From a virus (Duplodnaviria; Caudoviricetes), in the IMG/VR virus record IMGVR_UViG_3300028832_000135, positions 6,057 through 70,056 of that record: 64,000 nt of DNA, one strand, 5' to 3'. Shown piece by piece: positions 5,000 through 26,214 of this stretch (the first letter of the stretch is position 1; every line of letters begins with the position of its first letter). Under the pieces are notes generated by a model. That model worked only from the letters and a program-made list of their open reading frames with translations. It did not search any database and was not told the DNA's origin. Position numbers and translations under genes: made by a program.

Positions 5000-5009
5000 C
5001 TCACTTCAT

Positions 5010-5357
5010 TTACTCTGTTTCTACTTCTGTTTCTGTGTTTTGTGACTTACGCTTGCGAGTCTTTTTAGGCTCTTCCTCTGTATCAAGTACCTTTTCCAAC
5101 TCGTTTGAAAGTCTTATGTTCTCCTGCTTGAGCAACGAGTTCTGTGTCTTAAGACTTGCAAGCTCTGTCTTAAGATTTTCGATTTCCTTGATGTTCTGAG
5201 AATACTCAAGTTTGAGTTGGTTATTGTCTGCCGGGACAGCCTTTTTCAAGACCGCCCCGTCAGCACCAATAATGTTATAACCCATACCGAGGTATCTCTC
5301 TATTGCGTCTTCGGAAATGCGAAGGATTTTATTACCCTTTTGTGCCTGTACGCTCAT
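5010..5357 (-). CDS. Hypothetical coiled-coil protein downstream of capsid gene
   Basis: ORF with SD, heptad pattern and KKTRKRK tail. Confidence 0.6.
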   Translation of the reverse strand: MSVQAQKGNKILRISEDAIERYLGMGYNIIGADGAVLKKAVPADNNQLKLEYSQNIKEIENLKTELASLKTQNSLLKQENIRLSNELEKVLDTEEEPKKTRKRKSQNTETEVETE

Positions 5358-5378
5358 ATAGTACCTCCGAGAAGATTA

Positions 5379-6683: not shown

Positions 6684-6717
6684 AACTTCTTTTCTCCTTT
6701 AATTATTATTATTTGGT

Positions 6718-7428
6718 TTATTCGTGTGCCCTCACGCCTACGAAGCCAAAGTCAAAGTCTGTGTCATCTGACTGGGGTGCTCCTGAAGTGGACGCTACGA
6801 ATGTAGGAATGGGGGCAATAGGCTCACTCGGTTCGGGTTCAACTTCGGGTTCGGGTTCTACGACAGGTTCGGGTTCTTTCTCAACATAGAAAGCGTCATC
6901 GTTTTCCTGTTCGTATGCCGTCTTGAAGTCATCTGCACCGATAAGTTTGTCGCCCTCCATTGTGAGATTTTTGTCAGTCATTGCCTTAACAAAATCTCTC
7001 TTTGCGGCCTTTGAAGTAAACTGTAAACCGTTTGCATACTCCCTTACCGCAAATTCATAGGACTGATGATGAAGTTTCTCCTCGTAACTCTTAGTATCGG
7101 CATCGTACTTTGCCTGTAAGTCACTCATCTGTGTGTTGAGTGCATCAAGTTTGGTCTTATCCTCACCTGCAAGTTCCAACTGTTTCTGTAGGTTGGCGAG
7201 GTCTTCATCACGGGTGGTAATTGTGCCATTCAAGGTTTCAACTTGTCCATTAAGTGTTTCAATCTGCTGATTAAGTCCCTTAATGTCACTATCGTACTTT
7301 GACTTACTTACATACTTTCCGTCAGAGAGGTCTGCAAACTTGAGTCCGTTCTCTTTGGCAAGTGCCTCGAATTGGTCATAGGTCAAAATACCGTTTTCCG
7401 CCTTGTCAAACAAATCTTTGATGTTCAT
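6718..7428 (-). CDS. Capsid scaffolding protein (phage GP20-like)
   Basis: GKYVSKSKYD followed by coiled coil; EPEP-rich acidic C-terminus; upstream of MCP. Confidence 0.85.
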   Translation of the reverse strand: MNIKDLFDKAENGILTYDQFEALAKENGLKFADLSDGKYVSKSKYDSDIKGLNQQIETLNGQVETLNGTITTRDEDLANLQKQLELAGEDKTKLDALNTQMSDLQAKYDADTKSYEEKLHHQSYEFAVREYANGLQFTSKAAKRDFVKAMTDKNLTMEGDKLIGADDFKTAYEQENDDAFYVEKEPEPVVEPEPEVEPEPSEPIAPIPTFVASTSGAPQSDDTDFDFGFVGVRAHE

Positions 7429-7714
7429 TCTGTGTTTCCTCCTAAATAGAACAATCTTTTATATCCGCTTTACTTATAATGTCGCAGTTGCGGTCTGCGT
7501 TGATTGTGTCCGTTTTAAGCGTCTCGGGCGTGACAATATATACACCGACCATTTAAGGTCGTTGCACTCTAACTCAGTTTAGGTTGATTGGGAATTAAAC
7601 ACCTATTCTACTACCCTTACGTGGTTAATATTGCCTCACAAGTACCCCGAGGGGTCGTACTCTTTTGCACAACCCCCGGAGTACGGAGGTACGGCAGAAG
7701 AACAACACTACCAC
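7429..7714 (-). ncRNA. Structured 5' leader of scaffold/capsid operon (candidate cis-regulatory RNA)
   Basis: Several hairpins: GTACTCCGGGGGTTGT/ACGACCCCTCGGGGTAC, CGACC/GGTCG, CGCAG/CTGCG; downstream of a promoter. Confidence 0.45.
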
Positions 7715-7720
7715 AAGTTC

Positions 7721-7748
7721 ATTATATCCTATTGATTATATAAATCAA
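7721..7748 (-). promoter_or_regulatory. Promoter TTGATT-16-TATAAT (late class, contains CAATAGGATATAAT)
   Basis: Read directly; -35 overlaps the portal stop codon. Confidence 0.6.
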
Positions 7749-9634
7749 GGGGTGACGGGTGTTTGAGTACCATTATTGGGATTGTTATTTCCTTGCATTT
7801 GTGGTACTGACTGACTCTGATTAGGTGCTTGTTGAGCGTTCTTTTGCTTACTATCTTGTTCGTCTTGTTTGCTCTCCTCACCCGGAGTTTCGCCACCCGA
7901 CACCTGCTTACCGAGTTGAGAAGACATAACCATATTCTGCTCAATAGCCTGTCTATTCTCATCTTGTATCTTATCAAGTGCCTCTTGTGCCTGTTTTTCA
8001 GTTTCACCAAAGTACCACATACGAAGTTCCAACTTGCTCTCAAGACCCTTTTCCATAAGAGAAAGTCTTGTTGCAAGCTCCGTTTCTTCATCTATGAGAA
8101 TACTATCGTCCCACTCAAATGAAACATCATAACTACCCATTTTCGAGGTGTCCACATTACCATTGGAGTCATATTTAATGTCACCAACGATATTATATAA
8201 TGTTACATACACATTCATTGCATAGATGACATCTTCCAATGCCGTCTGTAATGCACTCTGTATCTCCTTATTTGATGAGAAACTTCTCTGCTTGAGTATC
8301 TTAATCTCTGTTGCCGTCCTTGCCTCTGCGGCCACATCTGAAAGCGTGCCACGGCTTAATGCACACACATCTTCAATTCTCATAAGGATATTGTTGAGTC
8401 CGTTAATCAGTGAAATATCTCGCAGCGAGGGAGAGAATGGCTTGTAGGTGTCGGACTCACCCAGGTCGACCGGGCGGTACAATCTGTTCTGCAACTGACT
8501 CATCACCGAGCCGCCTTGGTCACCATTTAAGAATTGTAAAGCATCACGGTCAATGTCTATTGCGAGTTCACCACCCTCAAACTCCCAAAGAAGTCTTGAG
8601 TATTGCATATCTGCATCTTTAATAAGGTTTGCGGCCTTACCAAAACAACTCATTCCTAAAGGAGAATGGGTATCAATGATATTTGCATCGGGCATCTTAA
8701 AGTAACCAAACAAAAGTCTGTCAACATTCTTAATGGTTGCTTTAGGTGGTATGTCTTTCCATTCGGGCACATCTGTAAGTTTGATTTCAGAGCCGAGAGT
8801 AATCCCACCAATACCGCTATATGCCTCTTGGTTGTTGCTATTGGTACTCTCAAAAGCATAGTTTTCAATCATTACGTCATTGACATTTAATTTATGACGC
8901 TCAAGGCGTGTATAAATCTTATCACCTCTTGTGATTGTCTGAATGAAAGCAACATCTGTGAGATTACCAGAGCCGTCAAAAGAGAACGGATAAAAACAAT
9001 CCGCCTGAATGAAGTCATACTCCATTTTATATTGGTATTGTTCCTTTTCGTTCTTTTCTTTCTGCTTGCCGTCTTGCTTGTCTGTGGCAATTCCCGCAAC
9101 GCCCGTAACCTTAGAACGGACAACATAAGGCTTGATAATAAGACTTCCCTTTGCGGTGCCGTACTCTAATTGAGTGCGTATCTTTGAAAGCAACTTCTTA
9201 TGATATTGCTCATTAAGATATGTTGCCCTACGGGTATCACCCTGGACTTTTTCTTCAACGATTGTAGGTGCCTCGCCGCTTGCCCGGATATTTCCAAAAG
9301 CGTCACTTATCGGAGGAAAGTAGTTAGGATTGGTCTTTCTCTCTGTTTTAGTGGGTGCGGTAATCTCTGACTTCAACTCAAGTACCGCCATACGAGCCTT
9401 TTCACCCGAAATGAAAGCAGGTAGTCCCAATGAAACTACCCTTGTCTTGTCCTCTGCATCGGGTTCGTGTAACCACGGTGCATTGTCCATATACATATCC
9501 GTCCATAAATCTATGGCCTCTGTCATCTGGTCGCTCACCGCCGGGGTGACGTGCAAGGTTTCTTCGATTTTATGATTTAACCCAAACATTCTTGCAAAAA
9601 ACTCCTTTATCTTTGCCCAAAATGAGGAAAACAT
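7745..9634 (-). CDS. Portal protein (A118/SPP1-type)
   Basis: AIDLWTDMY...LGLPAFISGEKAR...SPLGMSCF...FDDS-like FEWDDSIL; Q/N-rich tail. Confidence 0.9.
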   Translation of the reverse strand: MFSSFWAKIKEFFARMFGLNHKIEETLHVTPAVSDQMTEAIDLWTDMYMDNAPWLHEPDAEDKTRVVSLGLPAFISGEKARMAVLELKSEITAPTKTERKTNPNYFPPISDAFGNIRASGEAPTIVEEKVQGDTRRATYLNEQYHKKLLSKIRTQLEYGTAKGSLIIKPYVVRSKVTGVAGIATDKQDGKQKEKNEKEQYQYKMEYDFIQADCFYPFSFDGSGNLTDVAFIQTITRGDKIYTRLERHKLNVNDVMIENYAFESTNSNNQEAYSGIGGITLGSEIKLTDVPEWKDIPPKATIKNVDRLLFGYFKMPDANIIDTHSPLGMSCFGKAANLIKDADMQYSRLLWEFEGGELAIDIDRDALQFLNGDQGGSVMSQLQNRLYRPVDLGESDTYKPFSPSLRDISLINGLNNILMRIEDVCALSRGTLSDVAAEARTATEIKILKQRSFSSNKEIQSALQTALEDVIYAMNVYVTLYNIVGDIKYDSNGNVDTSKMGSYDVSFEWDDSILIDEETELATRLSLMEKGLESKLELRMWYFGETEKQAQEALDKIQDENRQAIEQNMVMSSQLGKQVSGGETPGEESKQDEQDSKQKNAQQAPNQSQSVPQMQGNNNPNNGTQTPVTP

Positions 9635-9667
9635 CTAAACTCCTCCGCAATAATCATCTAAAATTCC

Positions 9668-10564
9668 TTAATCGAGGTGTTCTGCACCCCAAACACTCAA
9701 CCATTTACGGAGTCCTGATATTGCCTTATTAGAAAGACCCAATGTACTTATCGGTGACTTTCCTGGCAACCAAATGTAGGGTTCTCCATTCTTATTTTGG
9801 AACTGTATCTTATCCCAAACTTTATCTTCTGCATCACTTAACTTGTATGTATCGTTAAGAGCGGTAAGGATTGCATCTCTGTCAGCAATGTTAGTGCCCA
9901 TATTTATCTTTCTCGGCAACTTACCATTATTCTGCTTAAGATACTTCGTGAACTCACCCTTATATTTGTCAACCAACTCTTGCTTGCGTGTTTCATAATC
10001 GTTGACTTTCTTCTCAGCGTTAAGTTCTTTTTTCATCTGTTCGTGCTTGGCAATGTCTTTCTCTTGCTTGTCAACAAGGTCTTCTTGCTTACCTGAAGAC
10101 TTCTTGATTGCGTCTACGGCTTTCTGATAAGCCTCATAACCCCAATATTGCTCATTACCAGATGCCTTAAAGCCTTGCCACTTACCGTCAATCTTTGCAA
10201 CAAACGCACGGGGTTCGCTTGCGGGCATATGTTGACCAGTAATTGGAGAAAAATCCTCACCAACAGGGAGTATCTTGTGTCCGTCAACCTCTAATGGTAA
10301 TGTTTTTGTATCGTAATTCTCAACCCAGGCGGAAAACTTACCGTCTTTGGGTGTCTTCATTGTCATCTTACCGCCAACTTTGTTATACCAATGCTCGTAA
10401 AAAGCATAACGGTCATCAATTTCGTCAAGATGCGACTGCTCTTTTGAAGACTTCTTATTCTCTGCACTCTTAATAGCGTCCTTTAAGTCTTTGCCGTTTT
10501 CAATAAAAAGATGTCTGCCCTCAACTGTGACCCAACGACCTTGCTTACCATTAAATTCAGCCAT
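9668..10564 (-). CDS. Tag-A protein 4 (GRWVTVEGRHLFI), unknown C-terminal domains
   Basis: N-terminal motif shared with three upstream ORFs; SD AGGAG. Confidence 0.8.
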   Translation of the reverse strand: MAEFNGKQGRWVTVEGRHLFIENGKDLKDAIKSAENKKSSKEQSHLDEIDDRYAFYEHWYNKVGGKMTMKTPKDGKFSAWVENYDTKTLPLEVDGHKILPVGEDFSPITGQHMPASEPRAFVAKIDGKWQGFKASGNEQYWGYEAYQKAVDAIKKSSGKQEDLVDKQEKDIAKHEQMKKELNAEKKVNDYETRKQELVDKYKGEFTKYLKQNNGKLPRKINMGTNIADRDAILTALNDTYKLSDAEDKVWDKIQFQNKNGEPYIWLPGKSPISTLGLSNKAISGLRKWLSVWGAEHLD

Positions 10565-10569
10565 ATTGT

Positions 10570-10707
10570 TTATCTCCTCTTCTCTTTATATCCGCTCTTA
10601 CGGATAGCGGCACCTTGTTGCTCGGATTTTTTCCTTGCACCCTTACCGCAATATACCTTTTGGTTTCCCCATTGATAACAGTCTTTACCAACCTTATGAA
10701 CAGGCAT
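10570..10707 (-). CDS. 45-aa basic peptide MPVHKVGKDCYQWGNQKVYCGKGARKK...
   Basis: Manually translated; TAATG-coupled to the upstream ORF; below ORF-track cutoff. Confidence 0.7.
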   Translation of the reverse strand: MPVHKVGKDCYQWGNQKVYCGKGARKKSEQQGAAIRKSGYKEKRR

Positions 10708-10826
10708 TACTTCTTTTTCTCCTTATCCTCGGTATCTTCATACATCTTGGGAATGTAATACTTGCTCTCATCTATCGGCTTGGCAAGCAACTTATCAATC
10801 ATTTCTTGTGTTACTTTCTCTGCCAT
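10707..10826 (-). CDS. 39-aa charged peptide MAEKVTQEMIDKLLAKPIDESKYYIPKMYEDTEDKEKKK
   Basis: Manually translated; SD AAAGGAG; directly after the metallopeptidase gene. Confidence 0.65.
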   Translation of the reverse strand: MAEKVTQEMIDKLLAKPIDESKYYIPKMYEDTEDKEKKK

Positions 10827-10838
10827 ATCTGCTCTCCT

Positions 10839-11774
10839 TTACATATGCAATATCTTTACCAATTCTTGTGATAAAGGACTTGCCTTATCCCCATTGGCAA
10901 CATAGTCGGCAACCGCCTCCGCCATAAGTTCGTGATGACTTGTAGCAGCGTACCCGGAAATTGCAGTCGGGTGCTTGAATTTCGGGTTGGCATATCCGAG
11001 AACTCCGTGTTGTGGGGTGCTACCAAGTGCTTTCGTAAGTGCTTGATTTATCTCATTCTCAATGTACTTAGAAGTTGTACCACTTGCCTTGCCCTTACCT
11101 GATGACCACATCGTGACCTCAAGCATATCTGACAAATCGTGCTTTGTAAGTCTTCTGTTCATTCGTCCTATATGTTCAAAGAACATAATGTGCCCCAATT
11201 CGTGTGTAAGTATGTCTTTTGCCGTAGTGCCTTTAGGGTGATAATTGTTACTACCAGAAACGGATTGTGCATACATCTTCTGTAATTGAGGTTGATGCTT
11301 TGAGAATACAGGTGCATTGATATAAACATTATTCATATTGGCTTGAGCCATAGCAACACCAAAGATGCTACCGGGGTCGTTAAAAGAACCAACGCTCTTC
11401 AAGAACCTTAACTGTTGCGGATATTTCTGTTTCATTTCGGCAACGGTATTAAGAACCATATAGAGATTGGTCTTCGTGCAGATATTATCGTCTTCCGGGT
11501 CGAATGTAACCTTAACACCCGTATCTTGCTCAAACTGTTGTACGGCTTGAGTACGGGTGCCAATCTTACTGTAATCCTTGAAATTTGTAGCCAGGGTCGG
11601 TGTTGAGATTGCGTTGGCATAGTTGTGGTCAGCCGTGGCTACCTGTGTCTGGTGTCTACGCTCGGCAATTTCTCTTTCCTGCTTATCAACATCATCTTCC
11701 GCAATGAAGATATGCTTACCTTGCTTGGTTGTTATCCAATGTCCGTTTTTGTTATTGAAGTTAGCCATAATCAA
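10839..11774 (-). CDS. Tag-A protein 3 with zincin-like metallopeptidase domain
   Basis: THELGH (HExxH) plus ISGYA...ELMAEA third-ligand motif; N-terminal GHWITTKQGKHIFI. Confidence 0.8.
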   Translation of the reverse strand: MIMANFNNKNGHWITTKQGKHIFIAEDDVDKQEREIAERRHQTQVATADHNYANAISTPTLATNFKDYSKIGTRTQAVQQFEQDTGVKVTFDPEDDNICTKTNLYMVLNTVAEMKQKYPQQLRFLKSVGSFNDPGSIFGVAMAQANMNNVYINAPVFSKHQPQLQKMYAQSVSGSNNYHPKGTTAKDILTHELGHIMFFEHIGRMNRRLTKHDLSDMLEVTMWSSGKGKASGTTSKYIENEINQALTKALGSTPQHGVLGYANPKFKHPTAISGYAATSHHELMAEAVADYVANGDKASPLSQELVKILHM

Positions 11775-12289
11775 CCGTGCTCCCAGGGTGCTTTAACCTT
11801 TTTAGCAAGGTCAACATAGATTTCTCCCTTGTCTGCATAGGCACGAATAAATCTGAACGCCTGCTTATAATCTTTTTCTGAAAGATTATGGTCAAATGTC
11901 CAACCCCAATAGGTGCCCTCTCCGTCTTCATCTTGTTCCGGGACATTATACACAAAGTTAATGGGTACATTCTTTGTGTTTACCTCAATGCCTTTACCAT
12001 ATCCCCACTCTTCGTTGATTTCTTGCAACAAGTCAGATGGATATACATTATCCTCTCCGTCTTCATCGTGTTGCTTGTTCCACCACTTAATAAGGTCAGC
12101 GGTTTCCTTGTCATCAAGTTTGTCTTTCTTGACAATCTGCTCGGCTTTCTTCTCGTCTGTCAACTTTTTGGTTTGTTCCTCTTGAGCCTTAATCTCCTGC
12201 TCTTGCTTTTCCGTGGGGTCATCAGAGATAAAGATATGTCTTCCGTTAGATGTTACCCAACGACCCTCTTTACCATTATAAGTAGCCAT
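11771..12289 (-). CDS. Tag-A protein 2, acidic unknown C-terminal domain
   Basis: GRWVTSNGRHIFISDD...KQEQEI. Confidence 0.8.
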   Translation of the reverse strand: MATYNGKEGRWVTSNGRHIFISDDPTEKQEQEIKAQEEQTKKLTDEKKAEQIVKKDKLDDKETADLIKWWNKQHDEDGEDNVYPSDLLQEINEEWGYGKGIEVNTKNVPINFVYNVPEQDEDGEGTYWGWTFDHNLSEKDYKQAFRFIRAYADKGEIYVDLAKKVKAPWEHG

Positions 12290-12299
12290 TTCAATTACC

Positions 12300-13280
12300 T
12301 CACTTGATGTATTTCATAATGTCGTTAAGAACGGCATCACTTATTTTTCCGTCAATGACCCAGGTAAGTGCTTTAGCCAGGTCTCCCTTTGTAGCAATCT
12401 TCGCATCTCTCTTCCCGATAAATGCAAGGAACTTACAAGTCAGATTATAGTTAGCCTTGCCCGAAGTAATGCTATTTACCTCACTATCTGAAAAACCATT
12501 GGAAGATAAATCATCACTGACATATTGCCAACCGGGTATGCCGTCCTGCTCATCTCTACCAAACTCCGTCCACTCCTCTGTAAGTCCCTCAAGAGCCTGT
12601 TTTCCGAGTTCTTTTGCCTCTTTGGTCTTGGCATCGGTTGCCTTAATGTTCTCTATGGTCTTATTGAGTCCTTCTTTCTCGGCATTGATGTAATCATCAA
12701 CTGTTCCGTCATTGACTCCTCTTACCTTAAGGTCGCCATTAGCATCAAAATACTGTGTGCCTGTCTTCATCTTCTTAAAATCGGCAATTCTCTGCTTGGA
12801 CTGACGCTTTTCACGGTCAATCTGCTCATCAACCTCATTTTTAGACTTGAGTTCATTTTTTGCCTTTTTATTGGCATACTTTGTGATTTCGCTCTCATAA
12901 CGACCAGTATTTACATACCCATCGTGTATGATGTTATCAAGGCGGCGTTGTTCCTTTCTGACTTGTTCATAGGTTTCACCGCTATCTATGCCATACTTGT
13001 TAAATTGAGAAAGAAGTCTGTAAACCTCAACAGACTTATCGGTAAGTGACTCAAAATCACTATCTTTAGCCGATAAAACCTTTTTAGCGTCCTCGGCAAG
13101 TCCCTTGTAATAAGGGTTATTCTCAACAGGGTCAGTCTTTGTCTGTCTGCTCTGGTTATATTCACTTGCTCTCTTCTGTGACTCTGCGATTTCACGCTCT
13201 TGCTTTTCATTCTGGTCATCAGAAATAAAGATGTGCCTACCATTTACTGTGACCCAACGACCTTTTTCAGAATTACCCAT
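12300..13280 (-). CDS. Tag-A protein 1, helical unknown C-terminal domains
   Basis: GRWVTVNGRHIFISDD...KQEREIA. Confidence 0.8.
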   Translation of the reverse strand: MGNSEKGRWVTVNGRHIFISDDQNEKQEREIAESQKRASEYNQSRQTKTDPVENNPYYKGLAEDAKKVLSAKDSDFESLTDKSVEVYRLLSQFNKYGIDSGETYEQVRKEQRRLDNIIHDGYVNTGRYESEITKYANKKAKNELKSKNEVDEQIDREKRQSKQRIADFKKMKTGTQYFDANGDLKVRGVNDGTVDDYINAEKEGLNKTIENIKATDAKTKEAKELGKQALEGLTEEWTEFGRDEQDGIPGWQYVSDDLSSNGFSDSEVNSITSGKANYNLTCKFLAFIGKRDAKIATKGDLAKALTWVIDGKISDAVLNDIMKYIK

Positions 13281-13691: not shown

Positions 13692-14189
13692 TTAGTTTCC
13701 TTTTCTTCGTTGTCGCAAGGCTTTCATTTTACAGGCATTACAACAATACTTACTATTCTTATTAGTAAATCGGCTATATGCCTTATTACACATCTCACAT
13801 ACAAAGTGTCGTTCCGTTCGGTTATCCTTACGAGTTAGCACTTGATTTTTATGCCAAGCCTTACCCTCTTCTGACTTATGCCATTCTATCGCTTTCGGAA
13901 CGGCTTTAGTAACAACATTGTTTCGTTTCCACTCTCGCTCTTCCTCTGTAAGCAATTCACCGTGTAATCTCTTGTGTTCCGCTTTAGAGAGTAGTTGTAA
14001 ATTAGAGATGTTATTGTTTGCCCGGTTTCGGTCTATGTGATGAACCTCATACCCTTTAGGAATTTTGCCGTTATAATACTCCCAAACATATTTGTGCATA
14101 AGAATAGTCGTATGCCCAACGGAGTGCCGAAAATAATCATTAGGTTTAGTCTGATAAAATTGTATGCCATTAAATGTCTGGTATTCCAT
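13692..14189 (-). CDS. Free-standing HNH endonuclease with C-terminal Zn ribbon
   Basis: MHKYVWE...VHHIDRNRANNNISNLQLLSKAEHKRLH; CxxC...CxxxC; SD before MEYQ. Confidence 0.9.
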   Translation of the reverse strand: MEYQTFNGIQFYQTKPNDYFRHSVGHTTILMHKYVWEYYNGKIPKGYEVHHIDRNRANNNISNLQLLSKAEHKRLHGELLTEEEREWKRNNVVTKAVPKAIEWHKSEEGKAWHKNQVLTRKDNRTERHFVCEMCNKAYSRFTNKNSKYCCNACKMKALRQRRKGN

Positions 14190-14212
14190 AGATGTTTCCT
14201 CCTTACAGACAC

Positions 14213-14241
14213 ATAATAACAATCGTATCTAACTATGTCAA
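14213..14241 (-). promoter_or_regulatory. Promoter TTGACA-17-TATTAT for HNH gene
   Basis: -35 overlaps the terL TGA stop. Confidence 0.65.
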
Positions 14242-15530
14242 TTACCCTTTCGTGCCCAGTATTTTTGAAGTGCGTAACGAACGCAGTCGATGCTGTGGTT
14301 ATCCTTATCCGGGTAAGCACTGATGAAATTGCCGTCTTTGTCTTGCTCGTACTCATAGTTGGAAAACTCTTTCCAAGTGTAGGGACAAACCTTGCGGTCG
14401 ATATAGATGTGATTAAGTCCTTGCAACCACTTTATGCCGTATCTTACGCTTTCAGGTCCCTTTTCCGCGGGTCTTATGAACGCACCATACGCCTTAAAGT
14501 CGGCTACGGATTTCTGCTCTGCACTATCCGCAATTACGGCCTCGGCTCTGTCTACGAGTTGAAGTTCATCATACAATTCGTGGAATACTGTTTCATTTCT
14601 CTTAAGTAATGTGTTGTACTCCTTAAAGATATACACATCTAAATGCTTTGGGTCGAAGTGCATACGAACAAATCTGAACGGGTCTTGAGCAAAACCCCAG
14701 TCAATACCGTTATAGATTTGGTCGAATGTCTGCCACATCGGTTTTTCTCCTCCCGGTGCTTCCACCAGTGTAGTCGAGTCAAACTCTGCAACATTCGGAA
14801 ATACATCTCCGCCCGTACCGATAGCCAAGCCAAGATATTCGTGAACATATGCTCTCTCATTTCGCAGCTTGAGTTCATTGGCCTCTTCAAAGAATTGCTC
14901 TCCAAGCCATTGCGGGGGAACATCAAGATATGTGTTATGTGTTACGAGCGTATTCGGTCTGTCTTTAACATCATCTGAATACTCATTCGCCCAATTATTC
15001 TTTGAGATAGGCGGGTTGAAAGTCATAAAGTTCCAAAACTCATCTCCACCTCTCATTGTGGATTGCAAAACCTTACGGATTTCATTCTCACCCGCGAACT
15101 GGTCCAACTCCTCCCACCAGGTAATTCCAATATAGCCTTTCTCAACCTTAATGGATTTTACCTTGTTAGGGTCGTCCATACCCATAAAGATTATCTTCTG
15201 ACCCGTGGGCAAGTAGATAATAGGGTTGGAGTATGTCTTTGGTATCTTAAAGAAACTCGTCAAGCCTAACTTCTCAATACCCCAAACAACCTGTGAGTAG
15301 ATACTGTTCTGTATGGTATTTCCTACCTTACGGAAACACACGGCATTTACTTCCGGGTGAGTTATGATAAGCATAGGTATTGCAATGCCGCCATAAAAAG
15401 ACGATTTTGTAGAGCCTCTTCCACCCTCTCCGATATAGTGGACGTGCTTATGTTGCATAATATCCCTAAAGACTGGCTTATACATAGGGATAACGCAATC
15501 GTTTATTGGTATGTTTATCTTAAAGTCCAT
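14238..15530 (-). CDS. terL: Terminase large subunit, PBSX family
   Basis: Walker A GGRGSTKS; WWEELDQF; TFNPP; GIDWG; DNHSIDCVRYA. Confidence 0.97.
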   Translation of the reverse strand: MDFKINIPINDCVIPMYKPVFRDIMQHKHVHYIGEGGRGSTKSSFYGGIAIPMLIITHPEVNAVCFRKVGNTIQNSIYSQVVWGIEKLGLTSFFKIPKTYSNPIIYLPTGQKIIFMGMDDPNKVKSIKVEKGYIGITWWEELDQFAGENEIRKVLQSTMRGGDEFWNFMTFNPPISKNNWANEYSDDVKDRPNTLVTHNTYLDVPPQWLGEQFFEEANELKLRNERAYVHEYLGLAIGTGGDVFPNVAEFDSTTLVEAPGGEKPMWQTFDQIYNGIDWGFAQDPFRFVRMHFDPKHLDVYIFKEYNTLLKRNETVFHELYDELQLVDRAEAVIADSAEQKSVADFKAYGAFIRPAEKGPESVRYGIKWLQGLNHIYIDRKVCPYTWKEFSNYEYEQDKDGNFISAYPDKDNHSIDCVRYALQKYWARKGN

Positions 15531-15550: not shown

Positions 15551-16099
15551 TTAATCACTTACCTGTGGCTTGGTGTCAAATGCCTGCTGAATGGCTTGAG
15601 CGTCTATGCTCTCACCAACTTCTCCGACATTGGCACTTGCGTCTTCTCCCCAATCAACCGTGATGACCAACTTAGGCGGTTCTTTGCCCGCAACGTGGTC
15701 TTCCACATCAATGACTCTCTTGCATAGTTCCTGACAAGCCTTTGTTCTCTCCGAAAGACTTGCATCAAGTCCAAACTGGTCTTTCTCCTCCCCACGCATC
15801 ACCCTTGTAAGATATTCAAGAAGTTCATCTCGGCTTGCTATCTTATCATTTTTGTGAGATTGTAGCCTGAAATTTATTTCTTCGGTCATATACTCTTTCT
15901 TTAACAGCCTATTTCCGTATTGGTCTGGCTTTGTGGTTTCATAGCCTGCCTTTATTACGGATTGTCGGATATTACCCGATAGCATATATTCATCTATGAA
16001 TTTGGCCTCTTTCGGAGTTAAAGGGTGACCACTATGAGTAGAGAACTTTGTTTGTTTTCTACTTTGAGTTGTTTTCTTTTTAGACTTGTTTTCTGCCAT
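15551..16099 (-). CDS. terS: Terminase small subunit
   Basis: LTPKEAKFIDEY...QSVIKAGY; IASRDELLEYLTRVMRGE...ERTKA. Confidence 0.92.
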   Translation of the reverse strand: MAENKSKKKTTQSRKQTKFSTHSGHPLTPKEAKFIDEYMLSGNIRQSVIKAGYETTKPDQYGNRLLKKEYMTEEINFRLQSHKNDKIASRDELLEYLTRVMRGEEKDQFGLDASLSERTKACQELCKRVIDVEDHVAGKEPPKLVITVDWGEDASANVGEVGESIDAQAIQQAFDTKPQVSD

Positions 16100-16119: not shown

Positions 16120-16153
16120 AGTAGCGGACAAAGAGAGTTCTCCCCTTGCCCGC
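16120..16153 (-). terminator. Terminator closing the MGS array
   Basis: GCGGGCAAGGGGAG/CTCTCTTTGTCCGC stem (G-U pairs fit minus strand) followed by TACTTT. Confidence 0.65.
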
Positions 16154-16161
16154 CGTTTTTT

Positions 16162-16344
16162 TTAGATTTCGTCTAACGGCAATACATCATCAAGGATTTC
16201 TTGCACTTCTGCGTCAAACTCATCATTGTATGAGTTTGCCTCTGCAATAATCTCATCTGCTTTCTCTATGCCGTGAATGTCTGCCAATACCGCTCTTTCG
16301 GTATCTGCAAAATCATTATTTAGTATTTCAAAACCTCTTGCCAT
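16162..16344 (-). CDS. 60-aa highly acidic protein after JAB gene
   Basis: SD AAGAGG; D/E-rich. Confidence 0.7.
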   Translation of the reverse strand: MARGFEILNNDFADTERAVLADIHGIEKADEIIAEANSYNDEFDAEVQEILDDVLPLDEI

Positions 16345-16368
16345 AACCGTACCTCTTTTGTTATGTCA

Positions 16369-17034
16369 TCAATAGATGTTCTTTGCTTTTGTTGCCGTAT
16401 AAATAAAATCAAACTTGGCTAAGTTCTTCTTATACATTCTGTCAAATGCACCTACGGAGTATTGCCTTGCGTATCTTGTTGCCTGTGCTTGGCTCATAGG
16501 TCTTCTGTATGTGACTTTGCCTGTTCTTCTGTTTACCAACTTGACTTGTCCTTTATGCGGCCCGGACTTCAAAGGTGTAGTTGCCTGCTTATATGCTGAC
16601 TTGTAAGAGTTTGCAAAGTTCTGTTGCATTAACTTCTGATTTGTCTTTACCCACCTCTTGAGTCCGTCACGGTCTGCATTTTTACCAGCCTTAAGGCTAT
16701 AAGATTGTCCTTGCTCGGAATATGCCCTTATTTCACTCAAATTGGAGTCTGCAAACACCTTAAGGTCTTGCATTGAGAGCGTTCCGCCAAAGTCATTATC
16801 GGGGTGATTGTGTGTAAGGACGGCACCGTCAAGTTTGAGATAGCGGGGGTCAATGTGAACACTATGCTCATCTCCGACAAAACCAGTTACAGGCTCACCG
16901 CCTGCCGTAAAGAATGTTGCTTTTTCAACGGAACTATCGAGTCCGCCCCTTGTTGACTTCTCCCACTCTTCCAATGTACCCGTTACCGGGATTTGGTTGA
17001 ATGAGCCAACGGTAAGTATTCCACTTGAACCCAT
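16369..17034 (-). CDS. MGS-tag protein with JAB-like metalloprotease domain
   Basis: E...THNHP...TLSMQDL pattern (HxH...S..D) of JAB/MPN+ toxin-like domains. Confidence 0.75.
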   Translation of the reverse strand: MGSSGILTVGSFNQIPVTGTLEEWEKSTRGGLDSSVEKATFFTAGGEPVTGFVGDEHSVHIDPRYLKLDGAVLTHNHPDNDFGGTLSMQDLKVFADSNLSEIRAYSEQGQSYSLKAGKNADRDGLKRWVKTNQKLMQQNFANSYKSAYKQATTPLKSGPHKGQVKLVNRRTGKVTYRRPMSQAQATRYARQYSVGAFDRMYKKNLAKFDFIYTATKAKNIY

Positions 17035-17046
17035 ATGTCTGTCTCC

Positions 17047-17184
17047 TTACTTCTTTGTCTTCTTAACAGTGGCTTTCTTGGTCTTCTGTGATGCGGTCTT
17101 CTTCTTGATGTTTACACCGTCATTATAACTTCCCATAAAAGCCTTGATGCTATTTGAATTGAAACTCGGCTCCTTGTATGCCAT
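17047..17184 (-). CDS. 45-aa Lys-rich peptide MAYKEPSF...KKTASQKTKKATVKKTKK
   Basis: Manually translated; SD AAAGGAG. Confidence 0.7.
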   Translation of the reverse strand: MAYKEPSFNSNSIKAFMGSYNDGVNIKKKTASQKTKKATVKKTKK

Positions 17185-17196
17185 ATCTGTTCTCCT

Positions 17197-18036
17197 TTAC
17201 TGTTTGAGTACCAATGCACTTCTGTCGATTACATTGTAGTAATCACCATAACTGCCGTGAACTGATGACGGGCCGCTTGAGATTACATTGTAACCCATAC
17301 AAAGTGCATAAATGCTTAAGTTCTTGTTGTTTACGCTACCGATTGCGTTTGCCGTCTGAGGGTGTGACCTTGACCACGCTGAAATCTTCCTTTGAAGTGT
17401 GTACTTGTCGATAACTTTAGCGGTCTTCGGATTGAGTACGCCTTCCATTGTTGAAGAACTACTACCACCGCCATAACCTGTGCTACCGCCACCATTCATC
17501 TCAAAGTATGCACCTGAACCATATGCCGTACCACCGTGCTTACCGCCAATGTAATTAACTCGGCTATAACGGAGAATGTCATTGATGTCGTTACCAGAGA
17601 GACTTACCTTAGTGCCGTCTGCGTTATTGTAAGTAGTACCGCTAACCGTTCTTGCAATAACTTCCTTTTGTGGAATGTTATTGTCTTTCATAAATTGAGC
17701 AAATGACGCACTATCAAGTACCATCGGCTTTTCATTGAGTCCGATTTGGAACGCAAATGATTGTGTTACATCTCTGACATCTTTCAAGTGGTTAGGCATA
17801 TCCACATTTCTTGATGCAATGACTTGAGCAGCCATTTGAACGTCATTCATTGCCGTAAGAGCGTTGAGTGCATTACTCGTAACGGGAGTATTCTGTGCCG
17901 TAGGTGTCTGATTTTGAACTCCGGGATTGCCCGCATTTACAGGGGTTACGGTAGGCGTTGGTGCCGGGGGTACGACACGGGAAGTTGAAAATGTAGAACC
18001 ACCCGAATATCTTGTTGTTGAACCTGTGCTACCCAT
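17197..18036 (-). CDS. MGS-tag protein, probable PARP-like ADP-ribosyltransferase fold
   Basis: IART...GGTAYGSGAYF...STGYG...YYNVIDRSALV resembles the G..YG.G.YF signature; low-complexity P/T/N-rich N-terminus. Confidence 0.55.
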   Translation of the reverse strand: MGSTGSTTRYSGGSTFSTSRVVPPAPTPTVTPVNAGNPGVQNQTPTAQNTPVTSNALNALTAMNDVQMAAQVIASRNVDMPNHLKDVRDVTQSFAFQIGLNEKPMVLDSASFAQFMKDNNIPQKEVIARTVSGTTYNNADGTKVSLSGNDINDILRYSRVNYIGGKHGGTAYGSGAYFEMNGGGSTGYGGGSSSSTMEGVLNPKTAKVIDKYTLQRKISAWSRSHPQTANAIGSVNNKNLSIYALCMGYNVISSGPSSVHGSYGDYYNVIDRSALVLKQ

Positions 18037-18038
18037 TT

Positions 18039-18188
18039 TTACTTTCCTTTCTTACTTGCACTCTTGCCAGTAAAATACTTGCAAGGTGTATTAGGCTTAC
18101 CGAAAGCACCGTCACCCGCACTAAATCTGTCATAAGATGTGTCTGTGACCTTGTTTGCTTTCTTTTGTGTCTTCTTAGTAGTAGCCAT
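18039..18188 (-). CDS. 49-aa Lys-rich peptide MATTKKTQKKANK...SASKKGK
   Basis: Manually translated; SD AAAGGAGG. Confidence 0.7.
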   Translation of the reverse strand: MATTKKTQKKANKVTDTSYDRFSAGDGAFGKPNTPCKYFTGKSASKKGK

Positions 18189-18203
18189 TCTTATGTTCCT
18201 CCT

Positions 18204-19040
18204 TTAGAAAAATTCAATATCAAACTCGATTGCGGGATAAGATTGAGCACCCGACCTCTTCATTAAAACTCTGCCATTTGAGTCTTTTCTGAACCTTGCA
18301 CCAGTAATCCTGAAGTTCTGAGGATTTGCTACTGTAGCCGGGGCAAGTACCAACTCTCCAAGTTGTCCTCCCGGACCGTTACCGGGCATAAATCCTTGTG
18401 TCTTTGCGGGTGCCTTGATGTTGAGTTTTACCGCCTTATCGGTAAATGGATTATTGGCGGGAGCGTGTCTGAAATCATTATAAGATGTTGAAAGGAACTT
18501 CTGCAGGGAGTGTGTACTTCCAACAAACTTCTGCAAATCAGAGTCTTTGAGATTGCCGTAATTACTGTGATTGATGCTCAACCCCGCGTTCTTTGCAAAG
18601 TTGTCAATCAGACTTACACGACCATAGTGAGTAAGGGTCAAATTCTGTCCGAGGTTGTGTGAGCCGTCTAACAGAGATTGAGCCATATATTGCTGATTTG
18701 CCGTAAGAGGTTTGCCCTTTTCCATTGAATTGTTCAACTCCTGTGACGGACTATACATTGAACCCGCAACTGGTTGGTCGTGAAGATAGTCTTGTACCGC
18801 CAACTTTGTGTCGATGTTAAATGTCTGTGCCAAATAGTAATTTCTGCCACCGCCTGACAATTCGTGATACGGATTGGGGTCAGTGTCAGAGAATGTAGCG
18901 TTATTCGCTGACTGTGCTTGTTGTTGTGTCGCAACGATTGTCGGGTCTTGTCCGCCATTGTAACTTGCAATGGACGGTGTGACCCCGCTTGTTGCGGTTG
19001 TACCCGATGAATAACTTGTACGAGAACCTGTACTACCCAT
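18204..19040 (-). CDS. MGS-tag protein, VIP2/C2-like ADP-ribosyltransferase
   Basis: FLSTS motif, QLGELVL catalytic-Glu strand, FRITG; N-terminal helical bundle AVQDY...LNNSM. Confidence 0.75.
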   Translation of the reverse strand: MGSTGSRTSYSSGTTATSGVTPSIASYNGGQDPTIVATQQQAQSANNATFSDTDPNPYHELSGGGRNYYLAQTFNIDTKLAVQDYLHDQPVAGSMYSPSQELNNSMEKGKPLTANQQYMAQSLLDGSHNLGQNLTLTHYGRVSLIDNFAKNAGLSINHSNYGNLKDSDLQKFVGSTHSLQKFLSTSYNDFRHAPANNPFTDKAVKLNIKAPAKTQGFMPGNGPGGQLGELVLAPATVANPQNFRITGARFRKDSNGRVLMKRSGAQSYPAIEFDIEFF

Positions 19041-19046
19041 AGTCGT

Positions 19047-19352
19047 TTACTCCTGTAATTTTGCTCTGATTGCGTTCCATTTTTCATTGTCTGTCGGCAA
19101 TTCTCTGCCAGTTAGACTATACCACATATCCCTTAAGTAAAAAACGATGTGAAGTTGTGCGGGACTATTGAAAAGTTCTTGGTTGACCCATTTCCCTTTC
19201 TTACTATCCCATACCGCCTGCTTGATGTGATATATGGTAATCGGTCGGTCTTGTTGCTCGGAGTAAAATTGAGATGTTGAGTACATTATCCTTAACCCGT
19301 TCTGGTTTAAGGCTTGTTGGAGTTTATGGATTAACACGCTCTGACTCGGCAT
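19047..19352 (-). CDS. Hypothetical protein heading the late operon
   Basis: SD AGGAG; first ORF after the promoter. Confidence 0.7.
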   Translation of the reverse strand: MPSQSVLIHKLQQALNQNGLRIMYSTSQFYSEQQDRPITIYHIKQAVWDSKKGKWVNQELFNSPAQLHIVFYLRDMWYSLTGRELPTDNEKWNAIRAKLQE

Positions 19353-19384: not shown

Positions 19385-19413
19385 ATTATATCCTATTGCA
19401 CTTCTCCAATCAA
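19385..19413 (-). promoter_or_regulatory. Promoter TTGATT-17-TATAAT (late class, contains CAATAGGATATAAT)
   Basis: Read directly; shares 14 bp with the 7721 promoter. Confidence 0.65.
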
Positions 19414-19456: not shown

Positions 19457-19582
19457 AAAAATGTAGTGCTATGCCGTCAGAAAATCACGAACTCCCTTTC
19501 ACAACGGACTCCCAACTCGCCTTTTCACAGATGGGGTGGGGGTCAAGCCGACAAAATGTAGTGTATAGGCTATCAGAAAATC
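19457..19582. repeat. Degenerate direct repeat, 96-bp period (AAAATGTAGTG...TCAGAAAATC)
   Basis: AAAATGTAGTG at 19457 and 19553; TCAGAAAATC at 19477 and 19573. Confidence 0.7.
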
Positions 19583-19588
19583 CGTTGG

Positions 19589-19945
19589 TCACTCCCCCTC
19601 GCCCCCACGGTGCTCTCTCCTCGGGGTGGGGGTGGGGATAGGTGGTGTAAAAAGCAACCCCATTTTATAGGTGGGGGTTAATGTCTTCTCAAGGTGTGGG
19701 GGTCTGCCCTTGCTCTCTTTCTTCGAGTTTCTTTTTCTGCTCTCTGCTCTGCCCTTGCGTGCGTGCATCTCTGCTCTGCTCTCTGCTTGGTCAACCTCTG
19801 CGAACAAAGTCAACTGACTTGGAACAAGCACTCCTCTGCTCTGCTCTCTCTTCGTCTTCTCAAAGCAAACTGGACCGAAACCCCTTGCCCGGTTCTCTTC
19901 GCCCTTTAGGCGTTTTCCGCATCTTCTGCAATACTTGTAAATCAT
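19589..19945 (-). CDS. DUF6011-like Zn-finger protein with low-complexity tail
   Basis: CRRCGKRL...RGFGPVC; contains QLTLF. Confidence 0.7.
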   Translation of the reverse strand: MIYKYCRRCGKRLKGEENRARGFGPVCFEKTKREQSRGVLVPSQLTLFAEVDQAESRAEMHARKGRAESRKRNSKKESKGRPPHLEKTLTPTYKMGLLFTPPIPTPTPRREHRGGEGE

Positions 19946-24189: not shown

Positions 24190-25091
24190 AACAATCTCCT
24201 TAACTGCTTTTTCTCTATTGTATTCTTCTTTGGCATTACATCATATGTGCCAACCCTTAAATTACAACAATCGTTAGAATTTGGATTATGCTTTTGCCAA
24301 TACTCATATGCAGTATCTTCGTCCTCACAAACTGAAATCTCCTTAAACCCATAAATCTTATCCAACAACTCAATCTTCCGGGCAAGCGGCAAATGCGTGT
24401 AGCCCCCGTGCTTAACTGTGTACTGGCTAAAATCCAAGTCAAACCACTTCCTTATCCAAGTGTTGACTCTTAAGAACTCAACTATCAACTTATCACATCT
24501 GATATTTGCCAATCGGTCGTAATCAACGAACTCTGGTATGAATGGTGACAACCTTACTTGCACATCAAAACCACTATCATATAACTTCTCTACGGCTTTT
24601 ATACGCTTGCTCGGTGGTACGGCTTTCTCATAGGCTAACTTATGATACAAAGCATCATCAAAGCAAGTAATGGTCACTTGAATATGTGCAAGGTCTTTAT
24701 CCATTACATCAAGGTATTCTTCATATGCCACAATGTCTGATTTAGTGACGATAAGATATGGTTGTTGCTTTTTCTTTAACTCCCACAAGGTATGAAAAGT
24801 AACTCTGTGTTCCAACTCCAATGGTTGAAAACAGTCTGTCATACCGCCTAATCGGATTGCGGGCATACCGCTCGGCAACCTCGCTATCTTCTTGCGTATC
24901 TTCTCTATGTCCGCTACGGCAGGATTTTGGAAATCCCATAGGTTTCTGAAATCCAAAAGGCTCTTTGCATAACAATACTTACAATCGTGTTGACAACCAC
25001 AACCATATGTATCAAGCCTTGTTGGGTAATGGCACTTACTACCCTCATTGCCTTTTACTTCCTTATAGAAACTCTTGAACTCTTTACTCAT
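24186..25091 (-). CDS. Radical SAM protein, spore-photoproduct-lyase-like
   Basis: CQHDCKYC; IRLGGMTDCFQP; IVTKS; VRLSPFIP; start at MSKEF. Confidence 0.85.
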   Translation of the reverse strand: MSKEFKSFYKEVKGNEGSKCHYPTRLDTYGCGCQHDCKYCYAKSLLDFRNLWDFQNPAVADIEKIRKKIARLPSGMPAIRLGGMTDCFQPLELEHRVTFHTLWELKKKQQPYLIVTKSDIVAYEEYLDVMDKDLAHIQVTITCFDDALYHKLAYEKAVPPSKRIKAVEKLYDSGFDVQVRLSPFIPEFVDYDRLANIRCDKLIVEFLRVNTWIRKWFDLDFSQYTVKHGGYTHLPLARKIELLDKIYGFKEISVCEDEDTAYEYWQKHNPNSNDCCNLRVGTYDVMPKKNTIEKKQLRRLF

Positions 25092-26115
25092 AAATAACCC
25101 CCAATAACCTTGCCTCAATAGCAACTTTAGGTTGATTATCCCACTTAATATCCGCATTGAGTTTAACAATTATCGGCAACAATACTCTGCAACAATCAAA
25201 GAAATTATCCTGGTCTGCCAGATGTCGTTGTAGTTCTGGCTCGTAAGTTCCGGGCAACTGCAAGTAATCGAATGTGTGAAGTATATCGTACTTATTGATG
25301 TCCAAAAGGAAACTCATATAATCCTTGATGAACTGTTTTAAGTCCTTGCCGTCTGCATAAATACTTTCTACGGTCTTTATTGTATCTGCACTATTACGCT
25401 CTCTTATCGCATCTGTAAGCGTAAAGAACACATCATAGTCTACTATGCCTAATGCGGCCACAACGCTCTCTACGGTCAATTCGTGTGTGTATGACAAACA
25501 CTTATCCAAAAGCGTTATAGCATCTCTCATACCACCGTCTGCGACCTTTGCAAGGTATTGCAAGGCATTACTCAACTCCTCGGTAACGAATGGCGTTATC
25601 TCTTGCTTATGAATATGCACCAATCTCTTATATATTCCCTGTTGACTTATCCGCTTGAAATCAAATCTCTGCACACGACTCAGGATTGTTCTCGGTATTT
25701 TTTCGGGATTTGTAGTGCACATAATGAAGATTGCCTTTTTCGGTGGCTCTTCCAACAACTTGAGAAGTGCTTGCCACGCATTGTTTGAAAGTGCGTGCAC
25801 CTCATCAAGAATGAATATGCGATACTCACTATCCATACTCTGCACTTTGGCTTGTTGAATAATGTTTCTGATGTCATCTACGGAGTTATTACTTGCCGCA
25901 TCTAACTCTAACGGATTGCCCTTACCCTTATTTATTTCTGACGCAAAAATACGGGCACAAGTTGTCTTACCAGTGCCCGCACCACCTGTAAATAGATAGG
26001 CGTGTTGTACCTCGCCACTATCTAATTGTTGCTTAAGAATTATTTTCACCGACCCCTGCTCGGTCACATCATCAAATGTCCGGGGTCTGTACCGTGTAGC
26101 CAGTGACTCTGCCAT
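25084..26115 (-). CDS. dnaX: Clamp loader gamma/tau-like ATPase
   Basis: LATRYRPRTFDDV; GTGKTT; ELDAASN; ILDEVH; ALLKLLEEPP; ILSR; GGMRDA. Confidence 0.95.
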   Translation of the reverse strand: MAESLATRYRPRTFDDVTEQGSVKIILKQQLDSGEVQHAYLFTGGAGTGKTTCARIFASEINKGKGNPLELDAASNNSVDDIRNIIQQAKVQSMDSEYRIFILDEVHALSNNAWQALLKLLEEPPKKAIFIMCTTNPEKIPRTILSRVQRFDFKRISQQGIYKRLVHIHKQEITPFVTEELSNALQYLAKVADGGMRDAITLLDKCLSYTHELTVESVVAALGIVDYDVFFTLTDAIRERNSADTIKTVESIYADGKDLKQFIKDYMSFLLDINKYDILHTFDYLQLPGTYEPELQRHLADQDNFFDCCRVLLPIIVKLNADIKWDNQPKVAIEARLLGVIYE

Positions 26116-26138
26116 TGCTGTTCTCCTCGTTATGTGAT

Positions 26139-26214
26139 TGGCGGGGGTAGTGGGAGTCGAACCCACGCAATCCGGGAGTCAAAGACCCGTGCCTTACCGC
26201 TTGGCTATACCCCA
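26139..26214 (-). tRNA. trnQ: tRNA-Gln(UUG), CCA encoded
   Basis: Cloverleaf TGGGGTATAGCCAAGCGGTAAGGC...CTTTGAC...GTGGGTTCGACTCCCAC...GCCA. Confidence 0.92.

Follow-up and report, generated by a model that had tools for sequence, protein, structure and literature searches.

Leader-bearing enzyme genes with cognate small partners beside the terminase genes of a Clostridia phage: a candidate cassette of packaged effectors

The stretch of DNA analyzed here (hereafter, the window) comprises 64,000 nucleotides (nt), positions 6,057 to 70,056 of the virus record IMGVR_UViG_3300028832_000135; the complete record is 70,056 bp long and is rated complete by CheckV. Every gene of the window lies on the minus strand, and together they make up a phage genome. 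The element in question is an array in the interval 19352–16162 (−), which consists of a gene for a 101-amino acid (aa) protein followed by three large-small gene pairs. The large genes encode proteins of 278, 279 and 221 aa that share a short Gly/Ser-containing start (the MG..G leader), and each of the corresponding protein families is paired with its own small partner. The features of the array and of its surroundings are as follows.

19385..19413 (−): sigma-70-like promoter match (TTGATT-17-TATAAT), 10/12 matches, upstream of the array
19047..19352 (−): 101-aa basic protein, phrog_33130, function unknown; first gene of the array
18204..19040 (−): 278-aa protein, start MGSTGS (leader codons 19040–19023); predicted R-S-E-type ADP-ribosyltransferase (ART)
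18039..18188 (−): 49-aa Lys-rich peptide, partner of the ART; 12 K/R, isoelectric point (pI) 10.1; family MA.KK..DR[WF]..G.G...K-tail
17197..18036 (−): 279-aa protein with a predicted ART fold, start MGSTGS; R129 / Y177,Y188 / D271, ART-PolyVal-like
17047..17184 (−): 45-aa Lys-rich peptide, partner of the 279-aa protein; 12 K/R, pI 10.3; family MAYKE...A.AL...K-tail
16369..17034 (−): 221-aa protein with a predicted JAB/MPN+ metalloprotease fold, start MGSSG; assigned by fold and motif
16162..16344 (−): 60-aa acidic protein, partner of the JAB protein; 18 D/E, pI 4.05; C-terminal ..P.LDEI motif
16123..16154 (−): 14-bp hairpin between the array and terS; −22.2 kcal/mol, z −4.45; terminator-like, with a weak U-tract
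15551..16099 (−): terS (PF03592, 2.4e-21)
14238..15530 (−): terL (PF04466, 2e-35)
9668..13280 (−): array A, four genes for proteins that bear the other leader (G.W.T..G.HIFI); cargo families in common with the MG..G leader

Past the hairpin, the gene order is terS, terL, an HNH gene, the four genes of array A, portal, scaffold and capsid. Each of the six paired open reading frames (ORFs) is preceded, 6–12 nt 5′, by a Shine-Dalgarno-like sequence. The original prediction, made by a model from the nucleotide sequence, had described these six ORFs and the three MGS[T/S]G starts correctly; they lie on the minus strand at the coordinates listed above. It had overlooked the 101-aa gene (19352–19047). 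It had further described the array as a promoter-to-terminator unit, of which the promoter half stands; the hairpin (16154–16123) has no proper U-tract and drew no call in the terminator scan. The array may share a transcript with terS and terL.

The leader is the feature that unites the array. Among all the ORFs of at least 40 aa in the six frames of the window, MG[ST][ST]G occurs only in the three large proteins, each time at residue 1. The set used for comparison consists of 68 related metagenomic loci (denoted by L numbers), on contigs of 35–137 kb that come from metagenome-assembled genomes and viromes of gut and rumen Clostridia. An M-G-[GSA]-x-G start is found in about 100 of the 120 homologues of each of the ART and the 279-aa protein, and in nearly all of the 59 JAB homologues; the commonest form is MGGRGS, and the complete leader consists of M-G-[GSA]-x-G and some 10–20 further residues rich in Gly, Ser, Thr and Pro. 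In 62 of the related loci together with the window, 105 tagged ORFs of at least 100 aa that are preceded by a ribosome-binding site lie on the gene strand and none lies on the opposite strand. All four glycine codons, GGA, GGC, GGT and GGG, are used at Gly2 and Gly5, and this synonymous variety indicates that the constraint acts on the protein. Next to terS, terL and portal, the MG[GSA]xG leader heads at least 8 families of unrelated proteins, including ARTs (among them the divergent ones of L063 and L068, which have E-x-E), the 279-aa family, JAB proteins, peptidases of the zincin type with an HExxH motif and several proteins of 127–149 aa. Beyond the motif, at positions 7–14, the leaders of the ART and of the 279-aa protein share a mean of 3.72 residues when they belong to the same phage and 1.84 across phages, and none of 5000 permutations reaches 3.72; the loci being interrelated, this covariation within phages is read as concerted evolution and not as 29 independent events. 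By these lines of evidence, the leader is real, portable and constrained at the protein level. No paper on the MG tag was found, and the string 'MGGRGS' had no match in the literature searched.

Several other starts were observed along the way. A distant relative of the 279-aa family (37% identity) in L042, a 137-kb contig, and its neighbors (4456–10748) start with MGGS.., MGGGRD.. and MGGSRDYK and flank the portal gene; they look like a further leader variant in a much larger phage. In the window, the ORF at 25084–26166 (−) apparently starts with MGSTP, and its homologue in L068 starts about 16 residues further in, so that an upstream ATG probably creates a false resemblance to the leader.

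Pfam, PHROGs, NCBIfam and the PDB sequences yield no usable match for the 278-, 279- and 221-aa proteins, either as single sequences or as profiles. Structures were predicted for the 279-aa and 221-aa proteins, and the 278-aa protein was assigned from its sequence. This last protein has 169 metagenomic homologues, 120 of which were aligned (42–91% identity). The profile PF03496 (ADPrib_exo_Tox) matches 55 of these 120 (best E 2.3e-8); the window protein itself has no Pfam match at E <= 1, so that its membership in the family is transitive. The residue at position 141 is Arg in 99/120 and His in 21/120 sequences, S184 and S186 are invariant around a position 185 that is Thr in 100/120, and E229 is invariant. 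The divergent ARTs of L063 and L068 contain E-x-E. At the family level, the 278-aa protein is accordingly classed as a putative R-S-E ART of the Alt/VIP2-like class (PF03496).

The family of the 279-aa protein numbers 276 proteins when clustered at 90% and forms 399 clusters at 50% identity, and neither the window protein nor any of its 120 aligned homologues matches a Pfam profile. Its AlphaFold2 model has a mean predicted local distance difference test (pLDDT) score of 89. When the models were compared by VIA-align with 48,161 PDB representatives, all 37 matches of the 279-aa model with Z >= 2 were ART folds (PARP13, diphtheria toxin, MbcT, ParT, RES), with Z between 2 and 4.8. The top match, which is a lead only, is a domain of the pre-ejectosome protein gp28 of cyanophage A4 (Z 4.8, root mean square deviation (rmsd) 3.9 A over 127 residues). 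Because all the Z values are small, what counts here is the uniformity of the match list and not the scores. Foldseek searches of the PDB gave only matches with E > 0.06 for both models, and reliance is therefore placed on VIA-align and on BFVD, the database of predicted viral structures. In BFVD, the 279-aa model matches uncharacterized phage proteins with E from 3e-12 to 4e-4; several of the top matches are long (598–1499 aa) and one is ART-PolyVal-like. Lower in the list come a 'capsid maturation protease and MuF-like fusion protein' (E 3e-3) and many ART-PolyVal entries (E 0.02–0.4). A 616-aa MuF cluster in Atlas resembles the model with a template modeling (TM) score of 0.59, again a lead only; by sequence, the MuF-fused form of the domain was not confirmed, the long relatives that were scanned having no Pfam domain.

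The conserved residues of the 279-aa family are R129-S in strand 1, G-x-G-T-Y177-F, Y188 and Y266-x-N-V-I-D271-R272 in the last strands. Y177 and D271 are invariant, and position 129 is Arg in 119/120 sequences and His in 1/120. The active site of the ARTs of polyvalent proteins consists of a His in strand 1, a Tyr in strand 2 and an Asp in strand 5 (Iyer et al. 2017, PMC5512222), and the 279-aa family presents a putative R-Y-D counterpart of this H-Y-D triad, the equivalence being drawn from motif and strand order. No profile match to PF18760 (ART-PolyVal / Tox-ART-HYD2) was detected in the family, and an hhalign comparison with 14 ART-PolyVal domains from Clostridia gave a probability of 2% and E 0.02, over the GxGxYF...LN.K stretch only, so that homology to PF18760 is not demonstrable by sequence. 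On the model and the motif, the 279-aa protein is a predicted ART-fold protein, nearest to ART-PolyVal, with a putative R-Y-D variant of the H-Y-D arrangement. This would define an ART family outside Pfam, with its own R-Y-D site, that spans the 399 clusters given above.

For the 221-aa protein, the model (pLDDT 88) best matches JAMM1 of Pyrococcus (Z 7.0, rmsd 3.6 A, 105 aligned residues), followed by Cap3 of the cyclic oligonucleotide-based antiphage signaling system (CBASS; Z 6.4), Sst2 (6.1), RadC (6.0) and Rpn11 (5.6); the Foldseek list, with E > 0.06, also consists mostly of MPN proteins. E37, H75, H77, S87 and D90, which form the JAMM zinc site E...H-x-H-x(7-10)-S-x-x-D, are invariant in the 59 homologues. 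The protein is thus modeled as a JAB/MPN+ (JAMM) metalloprotease fold with a complete zinc-site motif. The matches to Cap3, JAMM1 and RadC lie within 1 Z unit of each other, and fold scores do not separate an isopeptidase from a RadC-type role.

The small partner genes are as regular as the leader. In the related loci, ART genes are followed in 47/47 cases by an ORF of 49–65 aa that belongs to one family (MA.KK...DR[WF]..G.G..., with a Lys tail), and genes of the 279-aa family are followed in 43/48 cases by an ORF of 45–60 aa of another family (MAYKE...A.AL..., with a Lys/Ala/Pro tail). Neither Lys-rich family has a match in PHROGs. Tagged zincins are followed by basic ORFs of 51 aa. Close ART-peptide pairs have a ratio of nonsynonymous to synonymous polymorphism (pN/pS) of 0.09, which indicates purifying selection (9 pairs, not independent). 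The peptide that follows the divergent ART of L063 has the ART-type ERF motif, and in L068 the peptide gene lies 5′ of its ART; because of this reversed order, the genes are better called 'paired with' than 'followed by' each other. A readthrough product or polyprotein of peptide and enzyme was considered and rejected, as the 49-aa ORF and the next gene are in different frames.

The JAB gene has an ORF of 61–66 aa on its 3′ side in 6/6 related loci. The acidic protein of the window is matched in four of these (L063–L066), with E 1e-6 in L063 and L064 and 8e-4 in L065 and L066. The small ORFs of L063–L066 and of L067 share the ..APAL.. C-terminal motif of the acidic protein, and the post-JAB ORFs of L067 and L068 look acidic and have no detectable similarity to it. 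In L063 (8001–8934), L066 (5688–6584) and L067 (8001–8891), the JAB gene and its small ORF lie directly 5′ of portal and not of terS; in L065–L067 they were seen to come after glycosyltransferase-like genes. The enzymes themselves are basic (pI 8.6 and 9.3 for the ARTs, 9.7 for the JAB protein, against the pI of 4.05 of the JAB partner). As judged from family and position, each enzyme family keeps its own putative cognate micro-protein, Lys-tailed for the ARTs and acidic for the JAB protein.

The related loci also show what is peculiar to the window. In 41 of the 44 loci with a GGRG leader, a DUF4417 gene ends just 5′ of the first tagged gene, the 3 exceptions being incomplete loci, and all nine upstream genes that were scanned match PF14386 (E 1e-34 to 1e-59). 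The window phage has no DUF4417 (across the complete record, nothing matches PF14386 at E <= 10), and its G-S-[TS]-G leader keeps Gly2 and Gly5 and lacks the Arg of MGGRG. The slot that DUF4417 has in the GGRG-tag phages is filled by the 101-aa protein, which has no detectable homology to DUF4417; its homologues (55–59% identity) head arrays in L001, L063/64 and L068. The 101-aa protein could be a leader-specific partner of the G-S-T-G branch. By leader and gene content, the window thus represents a DUF4417-less, Arg-less branch of the MGGRG-tag cassettes, and this branch limits the possible roles of DUF4417. In the literature searched, DUF4417 is uncharacterized; the one thing on record is that phage proteins often join it to ParB-CTPase folds (bioRxiv 10.1101/2025.10.10.680097). 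In L034 (4962–5996) and L035 (65–1099), DUF4417 was seen inside a 344-aa ORF with an N-terminus that is ParB-like by eye only. In L021, L023, L029–L031 and L055, the ART and the 279-aa protein of the same phage share a leader of a third class, M-A-S-N-K-[ST]-R-x-S-G-V-T, again with DUF4417 upstream, and distant family members start with MGKSRT, MAKGNR or MPKSSR; given these forms, the core of the leader may be a pattern of small, basic (Arg) and Gly/Ser residues and not Gly2 and Gly5 alone.

Array A, the second set of leader-bearing genes in the window, is linked to the array through its cargo. A zincin body carries the array-A leader (G.W.T..G.HIFI) in the window (10839–11774), and the same body carries MG..G in L001, L036 and L056. 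Searched with a hidden Markov model (HMM) of the array-A leader, the proteins gave one significant match (E 1.5e-6), which was P0400 and belongs to the 279-aa family; P0370 was not significant with this HMM. By these matches, cargo bodies move between the array-A and MG..G leaders, the two arrays being one kind of thing. What the original prediction had proposed is borne out in part, whereas the second loading route or ejection order that it read into the second tag is conjectural. Its guesses of an ART, a PARP-like protein and a JAB protein hold at the family or fold level, with 'PARP-like' now sharpened to an ART-PolyVal-like R-Y-D protein; the large-small periodicity that it pointed to is conserved across the related loci, with ORF families specific to each enzyme; the shared Gly/Ser start extends to at least eight families, with the codon variation and covariation of a portable protein-level leader; and the proposed link to array A is reflected in the zincin and the 279-aa family member that occur with either leader.

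The DNA around the array has further features. Directly 3′ of terL lies the HNH endonuclease gene (13692–14241, −), which has a near-consensus promoter match of its own, TTGACA-17-TATTAT with TG (14241–14213), and a strong terminator-like hairpin on its 3′ side (13666–13633). Just 5′ of the promoter-like site of the array, a 17-nt direct repeat (19470–19486 and 19566–19582) is 82% identical between its copies, with a spacing of 96 nt; on the gene strand, it reaches about 30 nt (GATTTTCTGA..GC.TA..ACTACATTTT). An unusual G/C-rich tract (~19600–19650) lies beside it, and the repeat and this region may be a candidate binding region for a late regulator.

The array can be read as a late-expressed effector cassette in the head/packaging module of an uncultured Clostridia phage, with enzymes that are packaged and delivered with the DNA, and this reading is given about an even chance. 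Under this scenario, the leader would be an address label, read by a phage-specific partner, that brings unrelated enzymes into the procapsid; the tagged enzymes would leave the capsid with the DNA, enter the host and modify host targets. All three enzymes keep their catalytic motifs and, for this reason, probably act on host targets shortly after they enter the cell. The partners would bind their own enzymes, and the Lys tails, which are histone H1-like, would serve as an adaptor that tethers the ART cargo to DNA or to the acidic interior of the capsid. Given that the ARTs and their peptides are both basic, the Lys tails probably bind something acidic, that is, DNA or the capsid interior, and do not neutralize the enzyme. 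The basic JAB protein and its acidic partner look more like an enzyme-inhibitor or immunity-like pair. The position of the array speaks for delivery, as it lies among the head genes, with terS and terL on its strand at one end and the promoter-like site at the other. So do the spread of the leader, its constraint at the protein level and covariation within a phage, the exchange of cargo between leaders, cargo of the types known from head-delivered proteins, and the conserved partner genes. A more specific version, in which the Gly leader would be no passive docking peptide but the substrate handle of a loading step that attaches tagged cargo, or passes it on, to the head, performed by DUF4417 in the G-G-R-G phages and by another factor, perhaps the 101-aa protein, in the G-S-T-G phages, with the Lys peptides clamping the cargo to the packaged DNA for a joint exit, is a speculative proposal that we consider improbable as a whole.

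A number of observations weigh against delivery with the DNA. Most of the relatives pair the tag with DUF4417, which is absent here, so that the label may serve an enzymatic step unrelated to packaging. In the JAB model, residues 5–15 of the leader region form a beta-hairpin, and there the leader may belong to the fold instead of being a free tag. The PDB fold matches of the 279-aa protein are weak (Z < 5), and the window ART lacks the first Glu/Gln of the [Q/E]-x-E ARTT (ADP-ribosylating turn-turn) motif, this position being Leu in 116/120 sequences (L-G-E). None of the three enzymes has a relative among the GenBank phages, and no cultured relative of the phage carries these genes; the TerL of the window is 45% identical to the terminases of Blautia and Clostridium perfringens siphophages. 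The related loci have common ancestry, and the counts given above are not counts of independent events. Finally, a cleavage step by a prohead protease, as for the label of phage T4, is not known here, a prohead protease not having been searched for.

Other explanations account for parts of the same evidence. The enzymes could act, unpackaged, in the producing cell late in infection and modify host machinery, phage DNA or virion proteins; the Lys peptides would then be DNA-targeting subunits, and the leader a handle for an enzymatic step or for the control of turnover. The late-operon position of the array fits this alternative, the Lys-rich tails suit nucleic acid binding, and DNA-targeting R-S-E ARTs exist; the placement of DUF4417 directly before the first tagged gene in the GGRG loci, and its frequent fusion to ParB-CTPase folds, point the same way. 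However, the leader and small partners also occur on the zincin and the JAB protein, which is a poor fit to DNA modification, the same cargo folds are fused to MuF or polyvalent head proteins, and the window phage is tagged yet has no DUF4417. Late intracellular action is, on balance, rather unlikely. The pairs could also be toxin-immunity cassettes of the polymorphic-toxin type, in which the small ORFs protect the producer or lysogen and the leader marks a trafficking class only. The JAB pair, with its opposite charges, is what such a cassette would look like, and the partner family tracks the enzyme family; but the ART partners are basic and mostly low-complexity Lys tails beside basic enzymes, unlike folded immunity proteins, the peptide gene of L068 lies 5′ of its ART, and the genes sit inside the late packaging operon instead of forming a moron cassette that has a promoter and a terminator to itself. 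We regard this explanation, too, as unlikely.

The shared start might have no function in the protein at all and instead reflect a recombination junction, a patch of homology or a translation-initiation context. The exchange of cargo bodies between phages and between leaders, and the location of the leader exactly at the module boundary, are consistent with such an origin. Nevertheless, Gly2 and Gly5 are kept despite the synonymous changes and the flanking nucleotides differ, the motif persists where the bodies are only 42–50% identical, and the covariation at the protein level within a phage extends 8–14 residues past the motif, which makes this the least probable of the explanations considered, and a very unlikely one. 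If, as in the preferred reading of packaging and delivery, the label loads cargo, then phages of the dominant gut and rumen Clostridia would possess a compact, portable means of enzyme delivery with DNA, built from a tag with a five-residue core and adaptors. This would bear on the takeover or disarming of the host, through NAD-dependent modification and Cap3/RadC-like JAB activity, on the evolution of effector repertoires by exchange of cassettes between two leader systems, and on phage engineering, to which it would offer a way of delivering proteins. Should the handle-and-clamp version hold, gut phages would have a general, programmable 'tag + adaptor' system of protein delivery.

Among the systems that come close are the DUF4417 and MGGRG cassettes themselves, which have the same leader architecture and the same ART and 279-aa cargo families; the window differs from these in the absence of DUF4417 and of the Arg and in the unrelated 101-aa protein upstream. 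In phage P1, DarA, Hdf, DdrA and others load DarB and Ulx into the head. If the micro-proteins are read as adaptors, the Dar helpers are a precedent in role; they differ in being larger and in having no one-to-one pairing with the cargo. As outlined in PMC12810830, small helper proteins of the P1 Dar system are needed for loading large anti-defense enzymes into the capsid.

The T4 capsid-targeting sequence (CTS) brings diverse internal proteins into the head (PMC3012670). The CTS, found on the internal proteins IPI–III and on the packaged ART Alt, is a short conserved N-terminal label on diverse, fast-evolving effectors, and the same short N-terminal sequence on unrelated proteins of one phage is encountered here. 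An ADP-ribosyltransferase is among the loaded or injected cargo of T4 (PMC3012670, PMC5512222), and a putative one is among the candidate cargo here. The M-G-[GSA]-x-G leader is unrelated to the CTS, and the setting differs as well, with a Clostridia host, siphophage-like head genes and cognate micro-proteins.

For the MuF toxins of temperate phages, delivery with DNA has been proposed (Jamet et al. 2017, PMC5576092). As in these polymorphic toxins, toxin-like domains, including ARTs, lie in the terminase/portal module and are followed by small ORFs, and the relatives with the GGRG leader have a short MuF2 gene (PF06152) after portal. In contrast to the fused MuF domain of ~300 aa, the genes here are separate, with a leader of ~5–20 aa; none of the three window enzymes has a Pfam match to a MuF domain (PF04233/PF06152), the window phage shows no MuF gene after portal, and the ARTs have micro-proteins with Lys tails as their partners. 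In polyvalent proteins, ART, RadC/JAB and metallopeptidase domains occur, and their action early after co-delivery with DNA is predicted (PMC5512222). The domain repertoire here is the same (a putative H-Y-D-type ART, JAB and zincin), and the 279-aa protein has Y177 and D271 at what would be the positions of the Tyr and Asp of the ART-PolyVal family and matches ART-PolyVal models in structure. Unlike in polyvalent proteins, however, the domains are encoded by single-domain genes, and the 279-aa family has Arg in strand 1 in nearly all of its members instead of His and does not match PF18760. Overall, the system resembles T4 CTS cargo, MuF toxins and polyvalent proteins and departs from what defines each of the three, as it has neither a MuF domain nor a multi-domain protein, and no cleavage is known.

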